A stretch of 64,000 bases of DNA from an uncultured Candidatus Saccharibacteria bacterium (GTDB lineage: Bacteria; Patescibacteriota; Saccharimonadia; Saccharimonadales; Saccharimonadaceae): positions 48,516 to 112,515 of the forward strand of contig CAUQMT010000003.1 of assembly GCA_963519435.1 (NCBI GenBank), in the 5' to 3' direction. The notes under the pieces are model-generated. The model saw only the letters and a list, made by a program, of their open reading frames with translations. It ran no database searches and had not been told where the DNA came from. Shown here piece by piece: positions 1,207-41,327 of the stretch (position 1 is the stretch's first letter; each line of letters starts with the position of its first letter). The position numbers and the translations under genes are program-made.

Positions 1207-1283
1207 ACATTACCTCCTTGGTATCCGTACGGATGGTTACGTTATCTCACGCAACCTTAGGTTTAATATCGCTTAATATTATA
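1207..1283 (-). promoter_or_regulatory. rpsF promoter and structured leader (candidate S6:S18 leader)
   Basis: -10 TATAAT at 1278-1283; hairpin 1235-1241/1250-1256; palindrome ATCCGTACGGAT at 1223-1234; SD AGGAGGT at 1212-1218. Confidence 0.5.
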
Positions 1284-1332
1284 CCCTATCTGCTATGAAA
1301 AAGCTAGCTTCATACGTACCCCCAGCACGGAT

Positions 1333-1363
1333 AAAGTGCCCGTTACTACACGGGCACTTTTTT
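1333..1363. terminator. Intrinsic terminator-like hairpin
   Basis: AAAGTGCCCGT-6nt-ACGGGCACTTT followed by T run. Confidence 0.7.
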
Positions 1364-1387
1364 ACCTACTCATTATTTTGAAAACTT

Positions 1388-2158
1388 TTAGTTATCCCAA
1401 CGATCTTTAACCTCAGCAAGCAACTCATCTACTCGATGTACTGCACCGTCGCCTGAATAGACACCCTCCTTTCTCTTGTCTACACCCTCATCTTTATTTA
1501 CATAAATAGTCCAGCTCAGATCACCCCTACATTTCTTACCTGGAGGGTATTCAAAAGGTTCAACGCGCCCGTTTTCGTCGGAATCCCAGGAGTAATAAAT
1601 TCTACTAACGCTAGCGTCATCGCTTCCTACAAATTTTATAGCCTTATCAGGATCGATCTTACCGTCCTTTGTTTTTATATCCCTCAATACTGAACTATCC
1701 TCTGAGCTAAAAGTAGCACATAAATATGAACTATGATCAGCTTTGCCATATTTAGGATTTCTTTCTTCTCGTAAACATAGTTCAACACTCATTCCCTCAT
1801 CTCTATTATAATCCGCAGTTTCACCGACACCAGTCCCTGATGTATTGCCAGCTGGCATTCCAGCAGCTACATCAATACGAAGTGATCTGCCGTCGCCAGT
1901 TGTATAAGAATCGCCCTCTCTAGAACCGTCTTCTCTAATTTCTTCAGCCTTATTCAAAACGACTGCACGCACGTTATCTGTCATATCGCGCATTTGTTCA
2001 TCGCTCATCGCGGGCTTATGTGCTTCATGACAGAGACCAAAAGCTACCGCAACAGATAGAGCAAGAGCACCTAGTTCCCTCACACGGCGTTTCCACTTTT
2101 CCCCTCTGCCAGGCCGTTCAGTGCCTGCGGTAGAGCTAAACTCTCTAGTTTTACCCAT
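1388..2158 (-). CDS. Hypothetical protein with N-terminal membrane anchor
   Basis: 256-aa ORF; hydrophobic LGALALSVAVAFGL; upstream TTGACA-17-TATAAA promoter. Confidence 0.7.
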   Translation of the reverse strand: MGKTREFSSTAGTERPGRGEKWKRRVRELGALALSVAVAFGLCHEAHKPAMSDEQMRDMTDNVRAVVLNKAEEIREDGSREGDSYTTGDGRSLRIDVAAGMPAGNTSGTGVGETADYNRDEGMSVELCLREERNPKYGKADHSSYLCATFSSEDSSVLRDIKTKDGKIDPDKAIKFVGSDDASVSRIYYSWDSDENGRVEPFEYPPGKKCRGDLSWTIYVNKDEGVDKRKEGVYSGDGAVHRVDELLAEVKDRWDN

Positions 2159-2356
2159 ATATTTATCGTAGCCTTTCTACCTACAGACAGTTATGATGTA
2201 AATAACCTGGTGATTTATACTCCATATTTGATAATTTGTCAAGTATATCTCCGCACTTATTTAGTCATTGCAATCATTGGATACTTTACCAGAAGATTAT
2301 AATACTTTTACCACCTAATTTTGCAGCCCAAATCAAAATTGTGCTATGATGCTAGA

Positions 2357-3172
2357 ATGCATGTCGCAATCCAAGGCCAAGCCGGTTCCTTCCACGACCA
2401 GGCTGCCCACCAATGGTACGGCGCTAGCGCCGAAATAGTCCCCTGCACAACGTTTAGCGAAGTCTTTGCGGCCTACAACGAGGGCAGTGCCGACGCTATC
2501 GTCGCAGCGGTCGAAAATACTTTGTTTGGCAGCATTAACGAAGTTTACCGTTATATCGAGGAATGTAGTGCGCCGATCGTCGGCGAAATCAAGCTGCCTG
2601 TCGAGCAAATGCTAATCGGTCTGCCAAACGCCAAAATCAGCGATATTACTGAGGTTTATTCTCACCCAGTAGCTCTTTCTCAATGCCGCTATTTCTTGCA
2701 GGAACATCTACCGCAGGCAACACCTATTGAATTTTTTGATACCGCTGGCGCCGTCGAATTTATCAAGCAAAACGGCTCCCGGCACTGCGCCGCTATCGCC
2801 AGCCAGACTGCCGCCGAATTATATAATTTGCCAATACTACAGCGTTCCATCCACGACAATCCCGATAATATCACCCGCTTTTTGGTAATTGAACCGTCTA
2901 ATGCGCCCGCTGATGCTAATCGTGCTTCTCTGGTCATCACCACCGACCATCAGCCTGGCGCTCTCGTCGAGGTATTACAGATATTCGCCAAGCGCCGTAT
3001 CAATCTCGCTAAATTACAGTCGCAACCAATCGTCGGCCAGCCCTGGAAGTATAAGTTTTTTATTGTCGTCGACTGCGCTGGACAACCGCTACATCAAGCT
3101 ATTCGCGACATCGAACGCAGCAACCACGAGGTTACTATCCTAGGTGAATACAAATCTAGTGCCAGCGATTAG
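2357..3172 (+). CDS. pheA: Prephenate dehydratase with ACT domain
   Basis: AIQGQAGSF, ENTLFGSI, VYSHPVALSQC, NITRFLVI, INLAKLQSQP; ATG 2357 follows TGnTATGAT. Confidence 0.9.
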   Translation: MHVAIQGQAGSFHDQAAHQWYGASAEIVPCTTFSEVFAAYNEGSADAIVAAVENTLFGSINEVYRYIEECSAPIVGEIKLPVEQMLIGLPNAKISDITEVYSHPVALSQCRYFLQEHLPQATPIEFFDTAGAVEFIKQNGSRHCAAIASQTAAELYNLPILQRSIHDNPDNITRFLVIEPSNAPADANRASLVITTDHQPGALVEVLQIFAKRRINLAKLQSQPIVGQPWKYKFFIVVDCAGQPLHQAIRDIERSNHEVTILGEYKSSASD

Positions 3173-33358: not shown

Positions 33359-34221
33359 AGCCATTTGCTCCGTATAAAGTATACCAGCATCAATATCGGC
33401 AAAACGACCAGCAGCGCCATCGTTATCCAAAACATTACATCGCTATGAAACGGCAGCTGCGAAAAATTCATGCCTGCCAGACCCGTCAAAAAAGACATTG
33501 GCATAAATATCGTCGTTACAATCGTCAAACGCTTCATTACATCATTCATTCGATTAGACACTACCGACAAATACATATCCAGCGCACTAGTCAATAGATC
33601 GCGCATGGTATCGATTAGCTCGTGCACGCGCCAAGCGTAATCGTAGCTGTCGCGCGCATAAATCGCGCACTTTTCATCAAAAACACCGTATCGGCCGTTA
33701 CTCAAACCATTCAGCATATTCATCAGCGGCAAAATCACCTTGCGCAAATCCGCTAGCTGGCGCTTATACACAAAAAGCTGCTGCAACTGATGCTTGCCCG
33801 GATCGCGAATCATTGTATCTTCTAATTGATCGGTTACATCGTCAATTGAATTAAGAATCGGCATATACTGTTCGACTGTAAATTGAATCATCGTTGCTGC
33901 GATTAGCGACGGCGACAGAGCACCTGGCCGGTACGCTTCAATCCGCTCGGCAACCTCGCTATCTAATTCATCGCGGTGCAAAGTGATAACTTTGTTTTTG
34001 CTGAGCAAAATCGTCAACCCTTGCCAATGAACATTGCGGCGTTCAATACTGGGGATTTCCGCCTTAATCAGTAGCCAATCGCCGCCTTCGACCGCTTGCG
34101 GCAGCCAACGGTTCTCAATCAGAATCCGCCGTTGCAACTCCGATAAGTTTAATTTTTCAATTAAACTTTGCCGTACTTCTAGCGAATCCTCGCCGATATC
34201 ATGCCATATTTTATCTATCAC
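33355..34221 (-). CDS. corA: CorA family Mg/Co transporter
   Basis: SNRMNDVMKRLTIVTTIFMPMSFLTGLAGMNF (GMN motif). Confidence 0.9.
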   Translation of the reverse strand: MIDKIWHDIGEDSLEVRQSLIEKLNLSELQRRILIENRWLPQAVEGGDWLLIKAEIPSIERRNVHWQGLTILLSKNKVITLHRDELDSEVAERIEAYRPGALSPSLIAATMIQFTVEQYMPILNSIDDVTDQLEDTMIRDPGKHQLQQLFVYKRQLADLRKVILPLMNMLNGLSNGRYGVFDEKCAIYARDSYDYAWRVHELIDTMRDLLTSALDMYLSVVSNRMNDVMKRLTIVTTIFMPMSFLTGLAGMNFSQLPFHSDVMFWITMALLVVLPILMLVYFIRSKWL

Positions 34222-34769
34222 GCTTTCACCTTTTTTAAATAATACTTCAGCTCCATGATGCTGCCGCGGATGTCCTCCAGCGCCCGATGGTCCTCTGGCT
34301 TGGCAAATTTCTTGCCATATTTGCCCTCAAACACTACTTTCCAAGCACTGACATCCAACATCCGATAGTGTAGTCTTTTTGACAACGCAGGCCACCATTG
34401 GTCGATAAACCGCCGGTCTTGGTGAATTGAATTACCACCCAGTAAAATCCGCGGCTCATCTGCAAAATATTCATCACAAAACGCCAGCAGCTCACGCTCC
34501 ACCTCGGCCAACGGCTTGCCCGAGGCATTTTGTTCCTCCAGCCCAAGCCGCGCCGCTGGATGTTCATTCCAAAAGCTAGCATTTCGATCAAGCAATTTCC
34601 TTAGTTTCTCTGGGTCGTGTTGTACAACTCCCTCATATGTCGCAATTTCCGTAAAATCCCAATCAGTGGCAATCGCCGCCACCTCCAAAATCTCATCGTG
34701 CACCGGATCTAGCCCGGTCATCTCCAAATCCATCCACAGAATTTTTTTCGGCTTAAAACTCGCTTTCAT
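34218..34769 (-). CDS. orn: Oligoribonuclease
   Basis: WMDLEMTGLD; GNSIHQDRRF; HYRMLDVS; HRALEDIRGSI. Confidence 0.95.
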   Translation of the reverse strand: MKASFKPKKILWMDLEMTGLDPVHDEILEVAAIATDWDFTEIATYEGVVQHDPEKLRKLLDRNASFWNEHPAARLGLEEQNASGKPLAEVERELLAFCDEYFADEPRILLGGNSIHQDRRFIDQWWPALSKRLHYRMLDVSAWKVVFEGKYGKKFAKPEDHRALEDIRGSIMELKYYLKKVKA

Positions 34770-34859
34770 ATCTCTAGTATACTACTTTTTGGCGTCATAG
34801 TAATCTCGAGAAAACTGCTCTGGCACCTGCTGCAACAAACGCTCTAATACAAAGAAAAT

Positions 34860-34954
34860 ACCCCTCCTGGCGCGAAGAGGGGTCTGCCGCCCCAGCGGAG
34901 ATTGCAGCCGAAAACGGCCGGTCAATCCCCGCTGGGGCGGGATGGGAGGGTAAT
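34860..34954 (-). terminator. Structured 3' trailer and terminator of cassette 1
   Basis: Long hairpin CCGCCCCAGCGGGGATTG...CAATCTCCGCTGGGCGG, then ACCCCTC/GAGGGGT followed by ATTTTC. Confidence 0.7.
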
Positions 34955-35299
34955 TCACACGAGACTATCGTAAATTACCCTCACTACGTCCCACCCGTCT
35001 CGTGGGTAGTAATGAAGTTTTTTGACCTCAGCCAAGCTGGGGTCAAAAAAACTCATAGACTGAGGAGGTTTTTCAGTTTCAATATTTCTCACCTCCTCAA
35101 TCATCCCCAACCCCGAGAACCGGAGACGCGTAAGCACGCCTCCGGTCCTCGGGTACACCCGCCACACCCACACATACGTGGGCGGACGGGGAACAATAAA
35201 ATCGAGCGGGACATAGTCCCACTCGAAGAACAACCCCAAGTAAGTAAAAAACTCGAGGAATGATTCAATTGCTAGGGGCGGCTCCCTTTTCTCGGCCAT
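34955..35299 (-). CDS. Hypothetical 114-aa protein (cassette 1)
   Basis: SD GAGGAGG; own promoter and terminator. Confidence 0.7.
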   Translation of the reverse strand: MAEKREPPLAIESFLEFFTYLGLFFEWDYVPLDFIVPRPPTYVWVWRVYPRTGGVLTRLRFSGLGMIEEVRNIETEKPPQSMSFFDPSLAEVKKLHYYPRDGWDVVRVIYDSLV

Positions 35300-35482
35300 C
35301 TCTGGCCTCCTCTCTGCCCCCTTCCGGGGCGGTCAGCGGAGCTCGATCCTGTACCGAGCCCTCTTTAGCGCCGTGAAAACCACCGTTTCGCAGCATCAAA
35401 GAGGGCTCGATTCTACGTCTATATTAAAGTGCGCCAGAGACCGGCGGCATCGCCCCCAGCCCCTCGCCGGTATTATAACACA
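35300..35482 (-). promoter_or_regulatory. Extended -10 promoter and about 165-nt structured leader of cassette 1
   Basis: TGTGTTATAAT (-10 at 35472-35477); 12-bp IR 35355-35366/35398-35409; GCACTTTAATA at 35422-35432. Confidence 0.65.
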
Positions 35483-35558
35483 TTCTTGCAATTACTACCA
35501 TAATAATGTTAAGCACTAGCGCGAAGCAGCCAAGTCCCTCTCAGCCCGCACCCAAAAA

Positions 35559-36233
35559 CTACCGCCGCTGGCGCCGAAGGTTGCTATCCAACCACGCATA
35601 GCGAGCAGCTAGCCATCCTAAATACTCCTCGCGGCTGTGCAATATTGGGTGTCTCTCGTCCATACCACCTTCTCTGTCATCCACAATAATCGCTTTATCA
35701 AGCCATAACCTTTCAGCTTCTGCTCTTTGTTCGGGAGTTACTAATGACGGATCACCCGGTTCGCCGCCTCCCGCACCGCCGGTATGAGCGGTCGCTACTT
35801 CCCAAAAAAGGTTGTTAGGACTGTGACCACCGACACCCCTTAGCTTGGTAACTACTGTTACATCGCTTGTTGTCTGAATATCCCATTCAGCAACATCTTC
35901 TGTAGAGATCAGCTGCGAATAGCCTGAACGACCTTTTCTTACTGCATAAAAAACGCCACCTCTGTTGCTATCATCAATGCAAACTAGTCCGTTGCTAAAC
36001 GTATATTCAGTTTCTTTGGTGTGAACAATTTTTCTATCATCTGGCTGCGGTTGTATTTCGGCAATCACCTCTGGCAAAACGTCTTCAAAATTTGCCCGCT
36101 CAACAGGATCTGCTGGATAATGTATATGTGAACGTGCTGAGTCAAACCTGTCGACGACAGGCTGTCCATCTCTGAAGTAGCCAACAACTGGCCGGCTGCG
36201 GCCGCTGATAATCAAACTTTTACGTTGTTCCAT
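35559..36233 (-). CDS. Hypothetical protein
   Basis: 224-aa ORF; SD GGAGG; motifs SHIH, YAVRKGR, EPGDP. Confidence 0.7.
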   Translation of the reverse strand: MEQRKSLIISGRSRPVVGYFRDGQPVVDRFDSARSHIHYPADPVERANFEDVLPEVIAEIQPQPDDRKIVHTKETEYTFSNGLVCIDDSNRGGVFYAVRKGRSGYSQLISTEDVAEWDIQTTSDVTVVTKLRGVGGHSPNNLFWEVATAHTGGAGGGEPGDPSLVTPEQRAEAERLWLDKAIIVDDREGGMDERHPILHSREEYLGWLAARYAWLDSNLRRQRR

Positions 36234-36248
36234 GCTTTTGGCCTCCGA

Positions 36249-38111
36249 TTATAACGACTTATATTCTCCGCAAGCTGCGCACCACGAGGTTACTTTGGTT
36301 ATCAACTCGTTTAGCTTTTTAGCAGAGTTTTCGTCCTCGTAGGCAACATACCTCAGATCAATTGTTAGCGCCAACCGTTGTTTTTGAAGCTCGGCTGGAA
36401 GTTCATTGCCAAAAGATTCCATATAAGCTACAAGATTCTCCACCTCTGCGTAAAAAGCTCGTTCGCGCTTGGCAGCCTCTTCTTGTTTTTGTTGTTCAGC
36501 ACGGATTTGGCTAGCTTTTTCACGCACCTCCTCTGGCGAAACAATCACAAGACTTGTCCAGGTTTCGTAACCGATGGATTCCTTCTTCTCTACTTGGCAC
36601 ATAATTTGCTGCCCGCTCGGTATTTCAAAAGCTTCCGGATCTATATCAAGAATATTATCGACATTAACTGTTCTGTAGCTGAAATACGGGCCCGTGTATT
36701 TTTCGTTTCTTTGATATTCTACCTCTAGTTTTTCATCGCCGCTCGTGACGTAATCAGGGTAGAGACGATTAATATCGTCAACAGTCTCTTGTCCGCAAGA
36801 TTCTGCGGCAGTAAAGCTAGCAACTCCTTCAGCAATCTCGCTGATTCTGCGAAGTTCGCCGTTTTCATCTGTCAAACCGACTGCCGCGAGATGCTCGGCA
36901 ATCCGCGTTTCCAAATCTTCATCACTGAATTCTCTAAACGGTTGACCCGACTTTCTGGTAAGCCTCGCCAAATAGGTATTGGTACGACCCATGAGCCTCG
37001 TCCTATTATTTTTTGCGATGTATTCTACGACGAAATTAGCCATTTCCTCGCTAGGCTCAGCTGCAATCCGTTGTTCGCCCAACTGGAGCAATCCGTTGTC
37101 CAACACGGATTCTACTAACCTAACCGGCTTATCGTCGCTGCCTACCACAAAACCTCTGTCTTCATCAGCAAACAGCTGCGGAGCAACCTCCCGCAGGTCG
37201 CTTAATTTAACATTGGTGATACCTTTTAGAACTGGTATTTTAGCCTCTTTACCATTCTGTCGAAAACATATATCCTCTGGATCAGCCACCACCAGCTGGC
37301 CCATTTTAATCAGCGATCGCTGGCTCCGTTTTCTTTCTTCGCCTTCACTATTGCGATAAAGCCTGCCTTTATCTGTATCTACTAGTCTATAAGTATCTAC
37401 GGCGAACACTTCAGATCGTGTGTAGTTGCTACTTACTAAATCTGTTATCTTCATCTGGCGCCATAATTTATCGGCGCTGCCAGCTATTATACATTTCACT
37501 ATCTGCTTGCGCTCTTCATCAGATGGAAGCGTCAAGTCGCATTCAGCTAACCCCTGCTGATTTTTCAAGCGGCGCAATTCTCGATTAACCTTACCAGGAA
37601 CGCCTGGCCGTATATCGTGTCCGAGCAGCTCTTCCCTCGTCATATTTTGTATAGACGCCAACACTTCTAGTTGCTTCAACCAATCGGAATCATTGTATCT
37701 TGGGTCTATTAGATTTCTCCAGCGTTCCTCGCATGGTCTCTTCTTGCTGCCGTACACAACCAAGTCTGCCGGTGTTTTCTGCAAGGCCACTATAGCGGCA
37801 ACTTGCATTCGCACTGTTTCAGGGAAACGTTCTGCTTCGGCCAGCATACGGGCGTGCTCGGGACTTTCGCTGGTAAATTGTTCCATCTGGCGGCCAACCT
37901 CGGTCAATTCGCCATTTTCGTCAAGCGCGCCGAGGCGCTGTAATTTCTCTACTGGCACGTCGTCTCTAGTGTAATCCAGTACAGCCGCGCTAGCTACTGT
38001 GTCGTCCGGGTTTGTGCCATCGCTAGATTCTCGTACAGCCATCTCGGGATTGGGACGTTTCGGAGCACCAAACAAATCTCCTGGGGTTGGTATTTTTCTT
38101 CCTTCGCTCAT
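36249..38111 (-). CDS. Protein with DEAH-helicase C-terminal (HA2/OB-like) region but no ATPase core
   Basis: LQRLGALDENGELTEVGRQM...HARMLAEA; IVKCIIAG; no Walker A or DEAH motif. Confidence 0.6.
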   Translation of the reverse strand: MSEGRKIPTPGDLFGAPKRPNPEMAVRESSDGTNPDDTVASAAVLDYTRDDVPVEKLQRLGALDENGELTEVGRQMEQFTSESPEHARMLAEAERFPETVRMQVAAIVALQKTPADLVVYGSKKRPCEERWRNLIDPRYNDSDWLKQLEVLASIQNMTREELLGHDIRPGVPGKVNRELRRLKNQQGLAECDLTLPSDEERKQIVKCIIAGSADKLWRQMKITDLVSSNYTRSEVFAVDTYRLVDTDKGRLYRNSEGEERKRSQRSLIKMGQLVVADPEDICFRQNGKEAKIPVLKGITNVKLSDLREVAPQLFADEDRGFVVGSDDKPVRLVESVLDNGLLQLGEQRIAAEPSEEMANFVVEYIAKNNRTRLMGRTNTYLARLTRKSGQPFREFSDEDLETRIAEHLAAVGLTDENGELRRISEIAEGVASFTAAESCGQETVDDINRLYPDYVTSGDEKLEVEYQRNEKYTGPYFSYRTVNVDNILDIDPEAFEIPSGQQIMCQVEKKESIGYETWTSLVIVSPEEVREKASQIRAEQQKQEEAAKRERAFYAEVENLVAYMESFGNELPAELQKQRLALTIDLRYVAYEDENSAKKLNELITKVTSWCAACGEYKSL

Positions 38112-38138
38112 TGTAAGTCTCTTATCTTTCAGTCTATA

Positions 38139-39572
38139 TTAATTATTGAATTTATTCTGTAGAGCTGCTAATAAACTATCCATATCTTGGGAATTTATCT
38201 CTGCGTCGCGTTTGGCTTGCGCTTCGTCGTTTAAGTCTCCTTCTGTAAAGCCCCAGCCATCACCGATTGACGGCGATTCCTTACCAGACATACCAGTTGC
38301 ACCATCCCACTCTTCGGCTATAGATTTCTGGATAGCTTCTATTCGCTCAAGCTGCTCTCTTGTAATACCCTGCGGCGGCTCGTAACGCACGCCAAACCCA
38401 TGCGGAGCGGCCGTGTAAGCTTTCTCGTGCGTAAGAATCACTACACTTTCGTTAAGAACTTCCGGGCCCCACGTTTTATAGTCATCGCGGCGATAGCCAG
38501 ATTCGCTAGGCTCAACAAGCTCGCCGTCAGCACCTATCACGTAGGCTATGCTTCTACCAGTCATACCATTTGTACGCGTAAAAAACGAGAGTGTATATGG
38601 TAAATCGTGGCGCGTCTCGCGCTCGCCAGAACGACTAGTACCACAAAGCGGCACTATCTGCCACACCTTTTCATACCATTGTTCTGCCCGTCTACCTGCT
38701 GATTGAATAATTGCCGAACGCTGTTCTGGCGACTGAAAACCGCGCTCTGCTTCGTCAAGCATCGCTAGAATACCAACCGCCTGCTCGCGCAGAGCTGGAT
38801 CTCGAATATTATCTATATATTTACCTAATTCTTTGCGTATCGACAAAATTTCTTTCTGTGCCTCAGGAGTAATTGTTTTCTCTTTTAATTCTAAGGCCTT
38901 GATTCTGATAACTTCGCGGTTAATTTCTGACGTGTATAGCTTACCGCTATGCGTCACTCTTTGCTCTTCTTGCAGCCATCGATCGTCGTCATCAGGCAAA
39001 ACGGCGTTACCGCGTCTCAAGGTCGCTTCTGCAGACATATCTATTCCAAGCTCTTCGCCGATAGCTTGCCGCATATCTTTTAGTTCGTCGTCGCGCCAGC
39101 TATTGACTCGGCGGCGGCTGCCATGCGGCCCTTCATGCTGCAATCTATACAGCTGATTCATCCGAAGGATTGTCGCTAAACCCGCCACCGATAATTGCTC
39201 AGACACTACCACTAGATTAGGATGTTCCTCATCTTTTTCATCTCTGTTATAGTACCAATCGGCTAGTTCAATAGTCTGGCGGACCGGATGCCTTTCACTC
39301 GCTTTACTCAAGAGATGGTCCGACCGTCTCCAATCCCACGCTGTATAAGTATCTAGCTCGTAATCATCATTACGCCTAGAAGACGTCCATGTTTCTACAT
39401 ATTCATGCAATACACGCGCAGGCTGCCCAACCGTAAAATCTGGCAATTCATATCCGTGGCCGTCTCTAGCTTTTCTGTACGCCACACGCGCAAATTCCTG
39501 CTGAAAGCCGCTAACATCACCCAGCAATTCTGGCGTGACACGGCTTTCTGAATTTAGCCTCTTTGGGCTCAT
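38139..39572 (-). CDS. Hypothetical protein
   Basis: Long ORF; likely start ATG 39572 (MSPKRL) after CAGGAG/TATACT. Confidence 0.7.
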   Translation of the reverse strand: MSPKRLNSESRVTPELLGDVSGFQQEFARVAYRKARDGHGYELPDFTVGQPARVLHEYVETWTSSRRNDDYELDTYTAWDWRRSDHLLSKASERHPVRQTIELADWYYNRDEKDEEHPNLVVVSEQLSVAGLATILRMNQLYRLQHEGPHGSRRRVNSWRDDELKDMRQAIGEELGIDMSAEATLRRGNAVLPDDDDRWLQEEQRVTHSGKLYTSEINREVIRIKALELKEKTITPEAQKEILSIRKELGKYIDNIRDPALREQAVGILAMLDEAERGFQSPEQRSAIIQSAGRRAEQWYEKVWQIVPLCGTSRSGERETRHDLPYTLSFFTRTNGMTGRSIAYVIGADGELVEPSESGYRRDDYKTWGPEVLNESVVILTHEKAYTAAPHGFGVRYEPPQGITREQLERIEAIQKSIAEEWDGATGMSGKESPSIGDGWGFTEGDLNDEAQAKRDAEINSQDMDSLLAALQNKFNN

Positions 39573-39654
39573 CGTAAGTATACTCCTGTCTCTCGAGCCT
39601 TGACTGCTCGTTACCGCCGGCCGAATCGGTCGAAGATAATAAACTTTCAAGGAT

Positions 39655-39901
39655 TAATCCCCCGCATTTTACTGGCGCGGGGGGAGCCAGATAGGGCAGC
39701 GCGGCGCTAACTCGCCAGTGCTGCATTGAAAGGACCCCGAGTTAGCGGGAAGAGATGGTAGTGATACGTGAATAGGTGACGAACCATTTCACACGTATTC
39801 AACACCTTTAGCTCTCTCCAGAGCGAACGAATTTTTCGGACGAAGCCTACTCAATCCGTTTTTTCCCGGGTTACTGCCGGTTCAGTGTGACCGGGAAAGG
39901 G
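39655..39901 (-). ncRNA. About 250-nt structured 3' trailer of cassette 2, ending in a GC hairpin
   Basis: Hairpins TTTCCCGG/CCGGGAAA, CGCTAACTCG/CGAGTTAGCG and CCCCGC/GCGGGG; segments complementary to the 5' leader. Confidence 0.6.
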
Positions 39902-40237
39902 CTAGTCGAGCCGGATCAGCCGCTTAAAGCTGAATCCGAGCTGGGTAAGCTCGGATTCGCTCAGCTGCACCCCATTCGGGATGCGGCCTCCTTCAAGTCG
40001 ACAGACCAGAGCGACCTGCCCGACCTCGTGAGTAAAGAGACCCCGGTTGTACGGAATCTCCACACCCAAGAGCCGGGTCAGAACGTCGTTCGTCGGCTGG
40101 TGGCCAACGAACGACGTGATCTTGCCCTTTACCATCTGACGAGCCTCCTCGAGACTAACCGTCTCGAGGTCATAAAGCCCGTCCGCGGTGGCGATGCACG
40201 AACCGAGCACCGCCACCGGGCGGTTATAAAGCGCCAT
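39902..40237 (-). CDS. DUF1874 / YddF / AcrIII-1-like protein (putative cA4 ring nuclease), 111 aa
   Basis: SLEEARQ...SFVGHQPT...LLGVEIPYNR...ALVCRL.GRIPNG..LSESEL; SD GGAGGTGA 5' of ATG 40237. Confidence 0.8.
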   Translation of the reverse strand: MALYNRPVAVLGSCIATADGLYDLETVSLEEARQMVKGKITSFVGHQPTNDVLTRLLGVEIPYNRGLFTHEVGQVALVCRLEGGRIPNGVQLSESELTQLGFSFKRLIRLD

Positions 40238-40553
40238 TTCACCTCCTTCGGTGAGCGTGCGTGACTCTGTAAAGCGCTTTGGGAGCCCCAAAACTGTCAT
40301 TACAGCGCACAAATGATCGCCATTCCAGCCAGGTGTCGCACCCAGCCAGACTGCCAGCCTCGACATTTCGAGACCGCTAGTCTGACCAGGGCGATAACAT
40401 GCGTTATACTGAACCAGATTCTTCCATTTTAAAGCGCTAGCTTCCCAACGAAAGCTCGTTATGCAGCGCTACGCTGCCCAGGGCTAGCCGTCTAGCAAAC
40501 CGCTTTCCGTCCAGCCACTGAGCAATAATAGCACACTATTTATCGTATGTCAA
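40238..40553 (-). promoter_or_regulatory. Consensus promoter and about 280-nt structured leader of cassette 2
   Basis: TTGACA (40548-40553), 17 bp, TATTAT (40525-40530) with TG; multiple hairpins; GCGCTTTAAAA at 40427-40437. Confidence 0.7.
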
Positions 40554-40622
40554 CACTATTTTATAATAATTTTTGCCAGACTTGCCCTGCGGTGCTATCA
40601 CCCCCTATGCTATACTAAACTC

Positions 40623-41327
40623 ATGACTAAACGTATCCTTCTCAAATTATCCGGCGAGCAGCTACAGGGCGAGTTCGCCAGCGGCTTCGACCCCAAGCGG
40701 GCCCGCTGGATTGCCGAACAAATCAAACCAGCGCTAGAAACTGGCGCCGAAGTCGTCATTATGGTTGGCGGCGGCAATTACGTCCGCGGCAATCAGATCG
40801 TCGGCCACGGCATCCAGCCGGTCTCGGCTCACAATATTGGCATGCTCTCGACATTGATGAACGCTATTGCCTTGGCTGATGTTTTCAACGACGCCGGGCT
40901 GCCGACCCGCGCTCTATCGACCGTCGAAGTCAACCAATTTATCGATCACTATACTTTTCGCCGTGCCCTCAGCCACATTCAAAAAGGCCGGGTTGTCATC
41001 GTTGCCTGCGGCACTGGCCGGCCGTTTTTGACCACCGACACCGCTGCCTTGAATCTAGCTTTGGAAATGCAATGTGATGTTGTGATTAAAACAACGAAAG
41101 TTGATGGCGTGTACAATAAAGATCCTACCAAATTCCCTGACGCCACCAAATTTGATAAGCTCAGCTATCACGAAGCTCTGACCAACCCCCATATCGCCGT
41201 CATGGACAAAGCCGCCATCGGTCTAGCCATGGACGAACATATCCCAGTTGTCATCTGCGACCTCCTCACCGACGGTAATATCGCCCGAGCCGCCTGCGGC
41301 GAAACAGTCGGTACGCTGATTAGTTAG
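40623..41327 (+). CDS. pyrH: UMP kinase
   Basis: KRILLKLSGE; VGGGNYVRG; GTGRPFLTTDTAA; TKVDGVYNKDP. Confidence 0.96.
   Translation: MTKRILLKLSGEQLQGEFASGFDPKRARWIAEQIKPALETGAEVVIMVGGGNYVRGNQIVGHGIQPVSAHNIGMLSTLMNAIALADVFNDAGLPTRALSTVEVNQFIDHYTFRRALSHIQKGRVVIVACGTGRPFLTTDTAALNLALEMQCDVVIKTTKVDGVYNKDPTKFPDATKFDKLSYHEALTNPHIAVMDKAAIGLAMDEHIPVVICDLLTDGNIARAACGETVGTLIS

Follow-up and report, generated by a model that had tools for sequence, protein, structure and literature searches.

Ring nucleases have so far been encountered either as phage weapons or as off-switches within CRISPR loci, and both groups considered here, i.e., AcrIII-1/Crn2 and Crn4, are already known families. AcrIII-1 has been described as a dimer that cuts cA4, with His47 as the catalytic residue and with Asn8, Arg66 and Arg85 binding the ring, and as leaving cA6 defence unblocked (10.1101/778746). 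Crn2 is reported from 7 CRISPR loci and AcrIII-1 from 36 phage genomes (10.1101/2024.09.24.614671; review PMC8284326). Crn4 is described as having an unrelated dimeric fold, and Crn4b as cutting both cA3 and cA4 and as needing a His and an Arg (PMC12830947). The DUF1874 RNA motif has been described as multistem elements located by DUF1874 genes in consecutive intergenic regions, with an attC-like role suggested (Weinberg et al. 2017, PMC5737381). We found no publication on ring nucleases of Saccharibacteria in a search that missed most subscription papers.

The nearest named relatives of the window (i.e., the whole stretch of 64,000 nucleotides analyzed here) are Candidatus Saccharibacteria assemblies, in agreement with an earlier note on this DNA that had taken it for a probable epibiont chromosome. 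The 111-aa ORF proposed in that note as a DUF1874 homolog is present with the quoted motifs on the minus strand (positions 39902-40237), and the family assignment is confirmed by a profile search, as PF08960 (STIV_B116-like), presumably DUF1874 under a new name, matched the ORF over profile positions 2-100 of 101 and scored 61.2 bits (cut-off 26; E 1e-16); B. subtilis, among the controls, was also matched by this profile. We thus list the gene as a DUF1874/AcrIII-1-family ring-nuclease homolog. A 154-aa ORF starting further upstream was ruled out by the Shine-Dalgarno (SD) site and by the exchange point described below, which mark 40237 as the start. The best solved relatives of the window protein are AFV3-109 (2j6b, E 7e-8) and STIV B116 (2j85, E 0.13). 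Many of the nearest DUF1874 relatives (P0017-P0160) are fusions of 190-260 aa; 26 of them were scanned with Pfam, and the extra part mostly remained without a match.

Residues of the window protein were mapped to gp29 numbering by motif and compared to 149 distant homologs (i.e., the best 150 of 1674 profile hits, minus one close relative). The window protein keeps His46, Arg65 and Arg85, equivalents of which are present in 148, 140 and 147 of these 149 homologs, respectively. Equivalents of the conserved Asn8 and of the lid Glu88 are absent: at position 12 the protein has Gly, as opposed to Asn in 143 of the 149, and at position 88 it has Asn, as opposed to Glu in 130. The replacement of the usual Glu by Asn (RIPNG), to which the earlier note drew attention, is therefore real, and a second substitution, Gly12, was overlooked there. 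According to the journal version of the AcrIII-1 work, Glu88 reportedly matters for rate. A structure model of the monomer (built from 67 sequences) reached a pLDDT of 90, with low confidence only at loop 81-90, which would fit the mobile lid of the AcrIII-1 family. Alleles of the window type show a dN/dS of approx. 0.2 (dS up to approx. 1.1) and are under purifying selection; between the two allele types the ratio is 0.46-0.82, a range that is likely saturated.

The gene was described in the earlier note as standing alone, which holds for the lack of phage and cas neighbours but not for its setting, as it represents the cargo of a conserved unit in which a structured leader precedes the folded ORF and a trailer, likewise structured, follows it. 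From the promoter to the end of the trailer, this stretch of the minus strand measures approx. 920 nt. A putative sigma-70-like promoter with an extended -10 (40525-40553) has 11 of 12 consensus matches, the best in 34700-40700, this being a consensus match alone. The leader that would follow (40238-40518, approx. 280 nt from an inferred start site) has a folding z of -3.7 against dinucleotide shuffles, as compared to -3.2 and -2.5 for two intergenic controls, and it contains a hairpin (40341-40390) that is also found before Crn4 genes at other chromosomal sites (aligned with G100, G022, G025 and G070). Ahead of the ORF is a strong SD site (40239-40248) with a duplex energy of -13.4, which ranks it in the top 10 among 582 scored ORFs. 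Shortly behind the stop codon lies a compact predicted H-type pseudoknot (39865-39886), the variable stem pair of which is complementary in all 47 after-stop loci (20 G-C and 27 C-G; the loci are redundant) and mismatched in 4 of 6 chance matches within ORFs. This pseudoknot belongs to a multi-hairpin trailer (39598-39901; z -2.9; aligned across 10 loci), and a short 3' motif of the trailer's terminal stem recurs in the leader, both here and in G025. A second trailer pseudoknot is supported in L060, L076 and L092 (4, 7 and 20 of 2000 shuffles, respectively), where the strands have changed but are still complementary; it was not supported in L079, L102 or window-type trailers.

Neither the window region nor 11 loci had an Rfam match at E ≤ 1, and three accessions guessed for the DUF1874 motif turned out to be other families (DUF2693, EGFOA and DUF3577). 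A hammerhead ribozyme was rejected, as its core pattern occurs in 0 of 5 units and Rfam gave no match, and other ribozyme classes did not appear to fit. The leader is possibly the published DUF1874 RNA motif.

The window contains housekeeping genes, and a Pfam scan of 57 ORFs (11 + 46, with the argS ORF left out) detected no phage, integrase or cas family, as the earlier note had stated. The same scan of the window ORFs detected neither an integrase nor a transposase or reverse transcriptase in the vicinity of the gene, and the genome's sole tyrosine recombinase match lies approx. 56 kb away, beyond the window. No convincing terminal repeats or repeat family were found in 34700-40700. An integron cassette with attC sites was rejected for want of an integrase in the window and of a convincing repeat family in 34700-40700. 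The assembly comprises 650 kb in 5 contigs and is 76% complete; tmRNA was not detected in these 5 contigs (G000). Sequencing runs matched just small shares of the stretch and provide no evidence either way.

On the right, the unit is flanked by a UMP-kinase-like gene, pyrH (40623-41327, plus strand; PF00696), which adjoins it in all 6 DUF1874 carriers. To the left, the unit heads a 5-kb variable island, the whole of which is absent from 6 close relatives and beyond which lies an oligoribonuclease-like gene (34218-34769, minus strand; PF00929) that we take to be orn. All island ORFs are on the minus strand. The first passenger (38139-39572; no known family or Pfam match, GC3s 0.41, folding z -0.9) is missing in G081 and G005, both of which keep the unit. 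The second (36249-38111; 620 aa) has a helicase HA2 fragment (PF04408) at residues 57-76 and a weak HrpB match; it retains just the HA2 part of an HrpA/HrpB-like helicase. A third passenger (35559-36233; 224 aa) belongs to no family and is variably present among relatives. The island also contains a second short gene (34955-35299; 114 aa) with the strongest SD of the 582 and the most strongly folded coding sequence (z -12.2); its flanks are kept in most relatives, where the ORF is replaced by ORFs that have no identified family.

Among 105 genomes of the genus, PF08960 was found in 6, always next to pyrH. A common leader, ribosome site and 3' flank enclose a DUF1874 gene in these 6 genomes and a Crn4 gene in 5 others (hereafter, the slot). 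In G016, G005, G003, G082 and G102, DNA identity with the window breaks at 39885/39886 and resumes at 40235-40237, and a different 111-aa ORF lies between the shared flanks, such that the exchange runs from start to stop codon. Solved Crn4b (9r7b) matched the inserted ORF of G005 with E 2e-10 and that of G003 with E 0.009. This exchange could have come about by homologous recombination within the flanks that both types share. Overall, Crn4-like genes were found in 11 of the 105 genomes: 5 carry them in the slot, in 4 they lie on the side of a tRNA or of orn and have a related trailer, and in the remaining 2 they lie elsewhere and have a leader hairpin that is related. DUF1874 or Crn4 genes are thus carried by just 17 of 105 genomes. 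The leader had matches in 14 of the 105, of which 3 were promoter-only and 11 nearly full-length (88-100% identity), with DUF1874 or Crn4 behind each of the latter. Mutual exclusion of the two genes at the level of genomes was rejected as evidence, as its chance probability is 0.51, and only the shared flanks therefore count.

A 21-base motif just after the stop codon retrieved 53 metagenome loci, of which 14 contain DUF1874, 22 contain Crn4 and 17 were classified as other (2 broken Crn4 genes, 1 cut-off Crn4 gene, 6 chance matches and 8 other short ORFs, accompanied in these 8 loci by a related, longer RNA-like element). Where the flanks are of the Saccharibacteria type, each of the 37 loci contains DUF1874, Crn4 or a remnant, with no third family, a count that omits 16 of the 53 (the 6 chance matches in other contexts, the 8 other short ORFs, and L095 and L102, the flanks of which are of another type). 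The catalytic His is kept in all 14 slot DUF1874 ORFs; Glu88 occurs in none of these 14 and 2 have no equivalent of Arg65, while positions 12 and 88 are Asn-Asn in 6, Gly-Asn in 3 and Gly-Pro in 5. Both His and Arg are kept in 18 of 22 Crn4 alleles, whereas 4 of 22 are without a catalytic residue, some of them without both. The presence of an unrelated Crn4 in the same slot provides independent support for a ring-nuclease function of the DUF1874 gene, and the acceptance by one slot of two folds with one known shared activity suggests that ring cleavage is what is selected.

Related elements occur beyond the slot. One of the 8 loci with other short ORFs, L090, contains a tandem array (1280-2640, minus strand), in which a near-identical element of approx. 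90 nt lies behind each of two genes, namely a further folded ORF and, one unit upstream, a divergent gene resembling DUF1874. The DUF1874-like gene (Pfam E 0.034; 30 of 30 atlas hits) matched only weakly in a profile comparison with the close alignment (probability 4%), and it has a GC3s of 0.87, as compared to 0.25 for its neighbour. In seven loci (L060, L070, L076, L089, L092, L079 and L081), found mostly on contigs resembling Patescibacteria, the after-stop pseudoknot lies behind other short ORFs, including hydrophobic peptides of 28-55 aa.

The coding sequence of the window gene is predicted to be 75% paired, with folding z values of -11.2 against dinucleotide and -8.9 against synonymous shuffles (-6.4 in a rerun with fewer shuffles). 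Its folding energy lies approx. 46-50 kcal/mol below synonymous shuffles, as compared to an average of -3.0 (sd 8.4) for 55 random genes, the two outliers among which are strong-SD accessory genes. The GC3s of the gene is 0.74 against a genome mean of 0.48 (sd 0.087), a value reached by 3 of 556 genes. Only 4 of 569 ORFs in the genome are extreme folding outliers (39902-40237, 34955-35299, C1:213174 and C2:45892); a strong SD is common to all of them, as compared to 76 of 565 other ORFs. Two genes on C1 and C2 of G000 (L122 575-943, minus strand, and L123 593-1156, plus strand) stand alone and share a hairpin leader ahead of a strong SD; both have hydrophobic N-termini, a GC3 of 0.77-0.81 and coding sequences that are folded. 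The trailer of the folded C1 gene was rejected as part of the present unit, as it is a multi-copy terminator-like repeat. Overall, these data point to an unexplained class of genes, for which folding in the manner of an RNA virus genome is predicted over the whole coding sequence.

In one set of further ring-nuclease alleles, all 11 tested had a folding z of -4.5 or lower; values elsewhere were -7.1 (G100), -4.0 (G070), -2.5 (G025) and -2.3 (L090 gene). Hairpin positions recur among alleles, with an SCI of 0.59-0.67 in wider sets and 0.94 for three close alleles. A fixed covarying structure within the ORF was supported only partly, as compensatory changes were barely above partner shuffles. 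Folding is neither a rule of the family nor unique to these bacteria, as strong folding was obtained for one of 4 phage Crn4 genes, weak folding for another and none for the remaining 2. The strongly folded one (L133 308-772; z -4.9) is gp061 of Microcystis phage Ma-LMM01, an unannotated Crn4 homolog.

We also surveyed the genomes for possible sources of cyclic nucleotides. Across the 105 genomes of the genus, Cas10 together with RAMPs was detected in G065 alone, mCpol in none, and SMODS in 4, 3 of them above the cut-off; G034 and G025, with SMODS, are ring-nuclease carriers. In G065, which carries Crn4, a type III-B locus, the effectors of which are a CARF nuclease and CorA, lies approx. 290 kb from the Crn4 unit; this locus (L114 549-15020) also has a gene resembling an RT-Cas1 fusion. 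In G034 (L130 4219-6046) and G025 (L129 3985-5812), the SMODS nucleotidyltransferase adjoins a small two-helix membrane gene, near a LexA-like gene, and the two adjoining genes are likely a CBASS pair. Neither Cas10 nor RAMP was found in any of the 6 DUF1874 carriers (assemblies 76-96% complete), and no match to Cas10, RAMP, mCpol, SMODS, SAVED (searched without a positive control) or Csx1-HEPN was found in the present, 76% complete assembly, such that the earlier suggestion of control over a system elsewhere in this genome receives little support. Incomplete assemblies limit every such absence, and the survey leaves some support for a target in the host and for one in the epibiont alike. The interpretation of the gene in the earlier note is partly supported.

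Our preferred reading, held tentatively, is that of a ring nuclease aimed at host cyclic-oligoadenylate immunity. The gene is the exchangeable cargo of a Saccharibacteria chromosomal unit in which DUF1874 and Crn4 proteins alternate. A predicted homodimer would close its 81-90 loop over cA4 and cleave with His46, perhaps more slowly or with a shifted specificity owing to Asn88 and Gly12, and the message, folded end to end, would resist single-strand RNases and type III targeting. Protein or RNA would reach the host cytoplasm, with type IV secretion as a guess for the route. Activation of type III or CBASS in the host would stall or kill the cell that feeds the epibiont; with host-made cyclic oligoadenylate as the substrate, its removal would keep the host alive and growing under the epibiont. 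A host target is favoured by the observation that most carriers show no source of the ring, as 14 of 17 showed no Cas10, RAMP, mCpol or SMODS. We also counted for it that the after-stop motif was found in no viral contigs and the window protein has no relative there, that VirB4-like ATPases occur in 5 of 5 carriers tested, that TM7x is reported to live on Schaalia and to alter its phage biology, and that a type III locus of Actinomyces procaprae includes a Crn4 of its own (PMC12830947); the host group is likely Actinobacteria. Against it, we counted the lack of any signal peptide or extension on the DUF1874 or Crn4 cargo and of a VirB4 match in this 76% complete assembly, as well as the restriction of either gene to 17 of 105 genomes. 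Some alleles may be weak or dead, given the loss of Glu88, of Arg65 equivalents and of Crn4 catalytic residues described above. As cA6 signalling has been described for Actinobacteria and AcrIII-1 does not block it (10.1101/778746), the main signal of the host may escape the DUF1874 allele. Crn4 is reported to be able to trigger Panoptes toxicity (PMC13577387), which would harm a host. The DUF1874 protein SIRV2 gp37, for which a moonlighting role and no anti-CRISPR effect in native infection are reported (10.1101/2023.01.10.523387), also argues against a host target. A bolder extension, in which Patescibacteria export compact, folded, strong-SD mRNAs for translation in the host and the ring-nuclease slot is their anti-immunity member, appears improbable to us; if true, a cellular parasite would disarm host CRISPR signalling by RNA delivery. 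The idea that a strong SD implies host translation because these bacteria have no anti-SD was rejected, as the 3' end of the genome's 16S rRNA has an anti-SD and the strong SD thus does not point to host ribosomes.

The same survey also bears on an off-switch of the Crn2/Crn4 type acting in trans within the epibiont, which would remove cyclic oligoadenylate made by its own, intermittently present systems or a ring scavenged from the host; we consider this rather unlikely. It is favoured by the type III-B locus and separate Crn4 unit of G065, by the SMODS genes of G034 and G025, and by the finding that carriers make up 3 of the 4 genomes of the genus in which a clear cyclase is encoded (P = 0.013, with kin that are not independent), and it needs no secretion signal. 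Given the reported importance of Glu88 for rate, its absence here would fit a slower, regulatory enzyme. However, the 14 of 17 carriers that show no cyclase stand against it, and the folded coding sequence is left unexplained; moreover, the known Crn2 and Crn4 regulators lie within CRISPR loci (10.1101/2024.09.24.614671; PMC12830947). Folding would be accounted for by a single-stranded stage if the unit were a domesticated or still mobile element, i.e., a cassette with ssDNA/RNA recognition structures and a ring nuclease as anti-defence cargo. Related leaders and trailers at different chromosomal sites, the 5-kb island missing in 6 close relatives, the strong folding of the Ma-LMM01 gene and the GC3s of the units (0.60-0.89, as compared to 0.25-0.50 in most neighbours, with one G070 neighbour at 0.71) are consistent with such an element, as is the tandem order of ORF, motif, ORF and motif in L090, which resembles that described for the DUF1874 motif (PMC5737381). 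We nevertheless regard this account as doubtful, given the absence of integrase, transposase and reverse transcriptase genes near the slot, of convincing terminal repeats in 34700-40700 and of any match in viral contigs. Alleles at the same site, down to 50% protein identity, are under purifying selection and still folded, and the sense strand folds much better than its complement (-186.6 vs. -150.3), as would be expected for RNA with G-U pairs. Finally, the protein may be a non-catalytic sponge, or have a role unrelated to cyclic oligoadenylate, with the RNA as the main functional product. The change of two conserved binding or catalytic positions in the window protein, the Crn4 alleles without both catalytic residues and the moonlighting of gp37 would fit, but an alternation of two folds that share, as far as is known, only ring cleavage would be unexpected and His46 is kept in all DUF1874 alleles; this explanation is very improbable in our view.

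By both profile and solved relatives, the window protein belongs to the same family as AcrIII-1 (SIRV1 gp29, STIV B116, AFV3-109 and ICEBs1 YddF), with which it shares the GH histidine, the NR arginine, the lid arginine and a lid loop that is modelled with low confidence. Unlike AcrIII-1, its gene is not located on a recognisable virus, plasmid or ICE, has Asn88 and Gly12, and is exchanged with Crn4. As a chromosomal DUF1874 gene it resembles Crn2, but there is no cas gene nearby and no Cas10 was found in this assembly or in the 5 other DUF1874 carriers. The multistem elements and their association with the gene are like those of the DUF1874 RNA motif, a likeness by description, with no Rfam match here; a folded coding sequence is not part of the available description of that motif (PMC5737381). 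The alternative cargo matches Crn4b (PDB 9r7b), and both catalytic residues, His and Arg, are present in 18 of its 22 alleles; whereas Crn4b has been described in type III loci, phages and plasmids (PMC12830947), here it is an allele of DUF1874 in an epibiont chromosome. With this slot, manipulation of host immunity by Patescibacteria could be tested directly, and its swapping, within an epibiont, of two ring-nuclease folds with different reported ring-size ranges has the look of an arms race against the signal of a partner.
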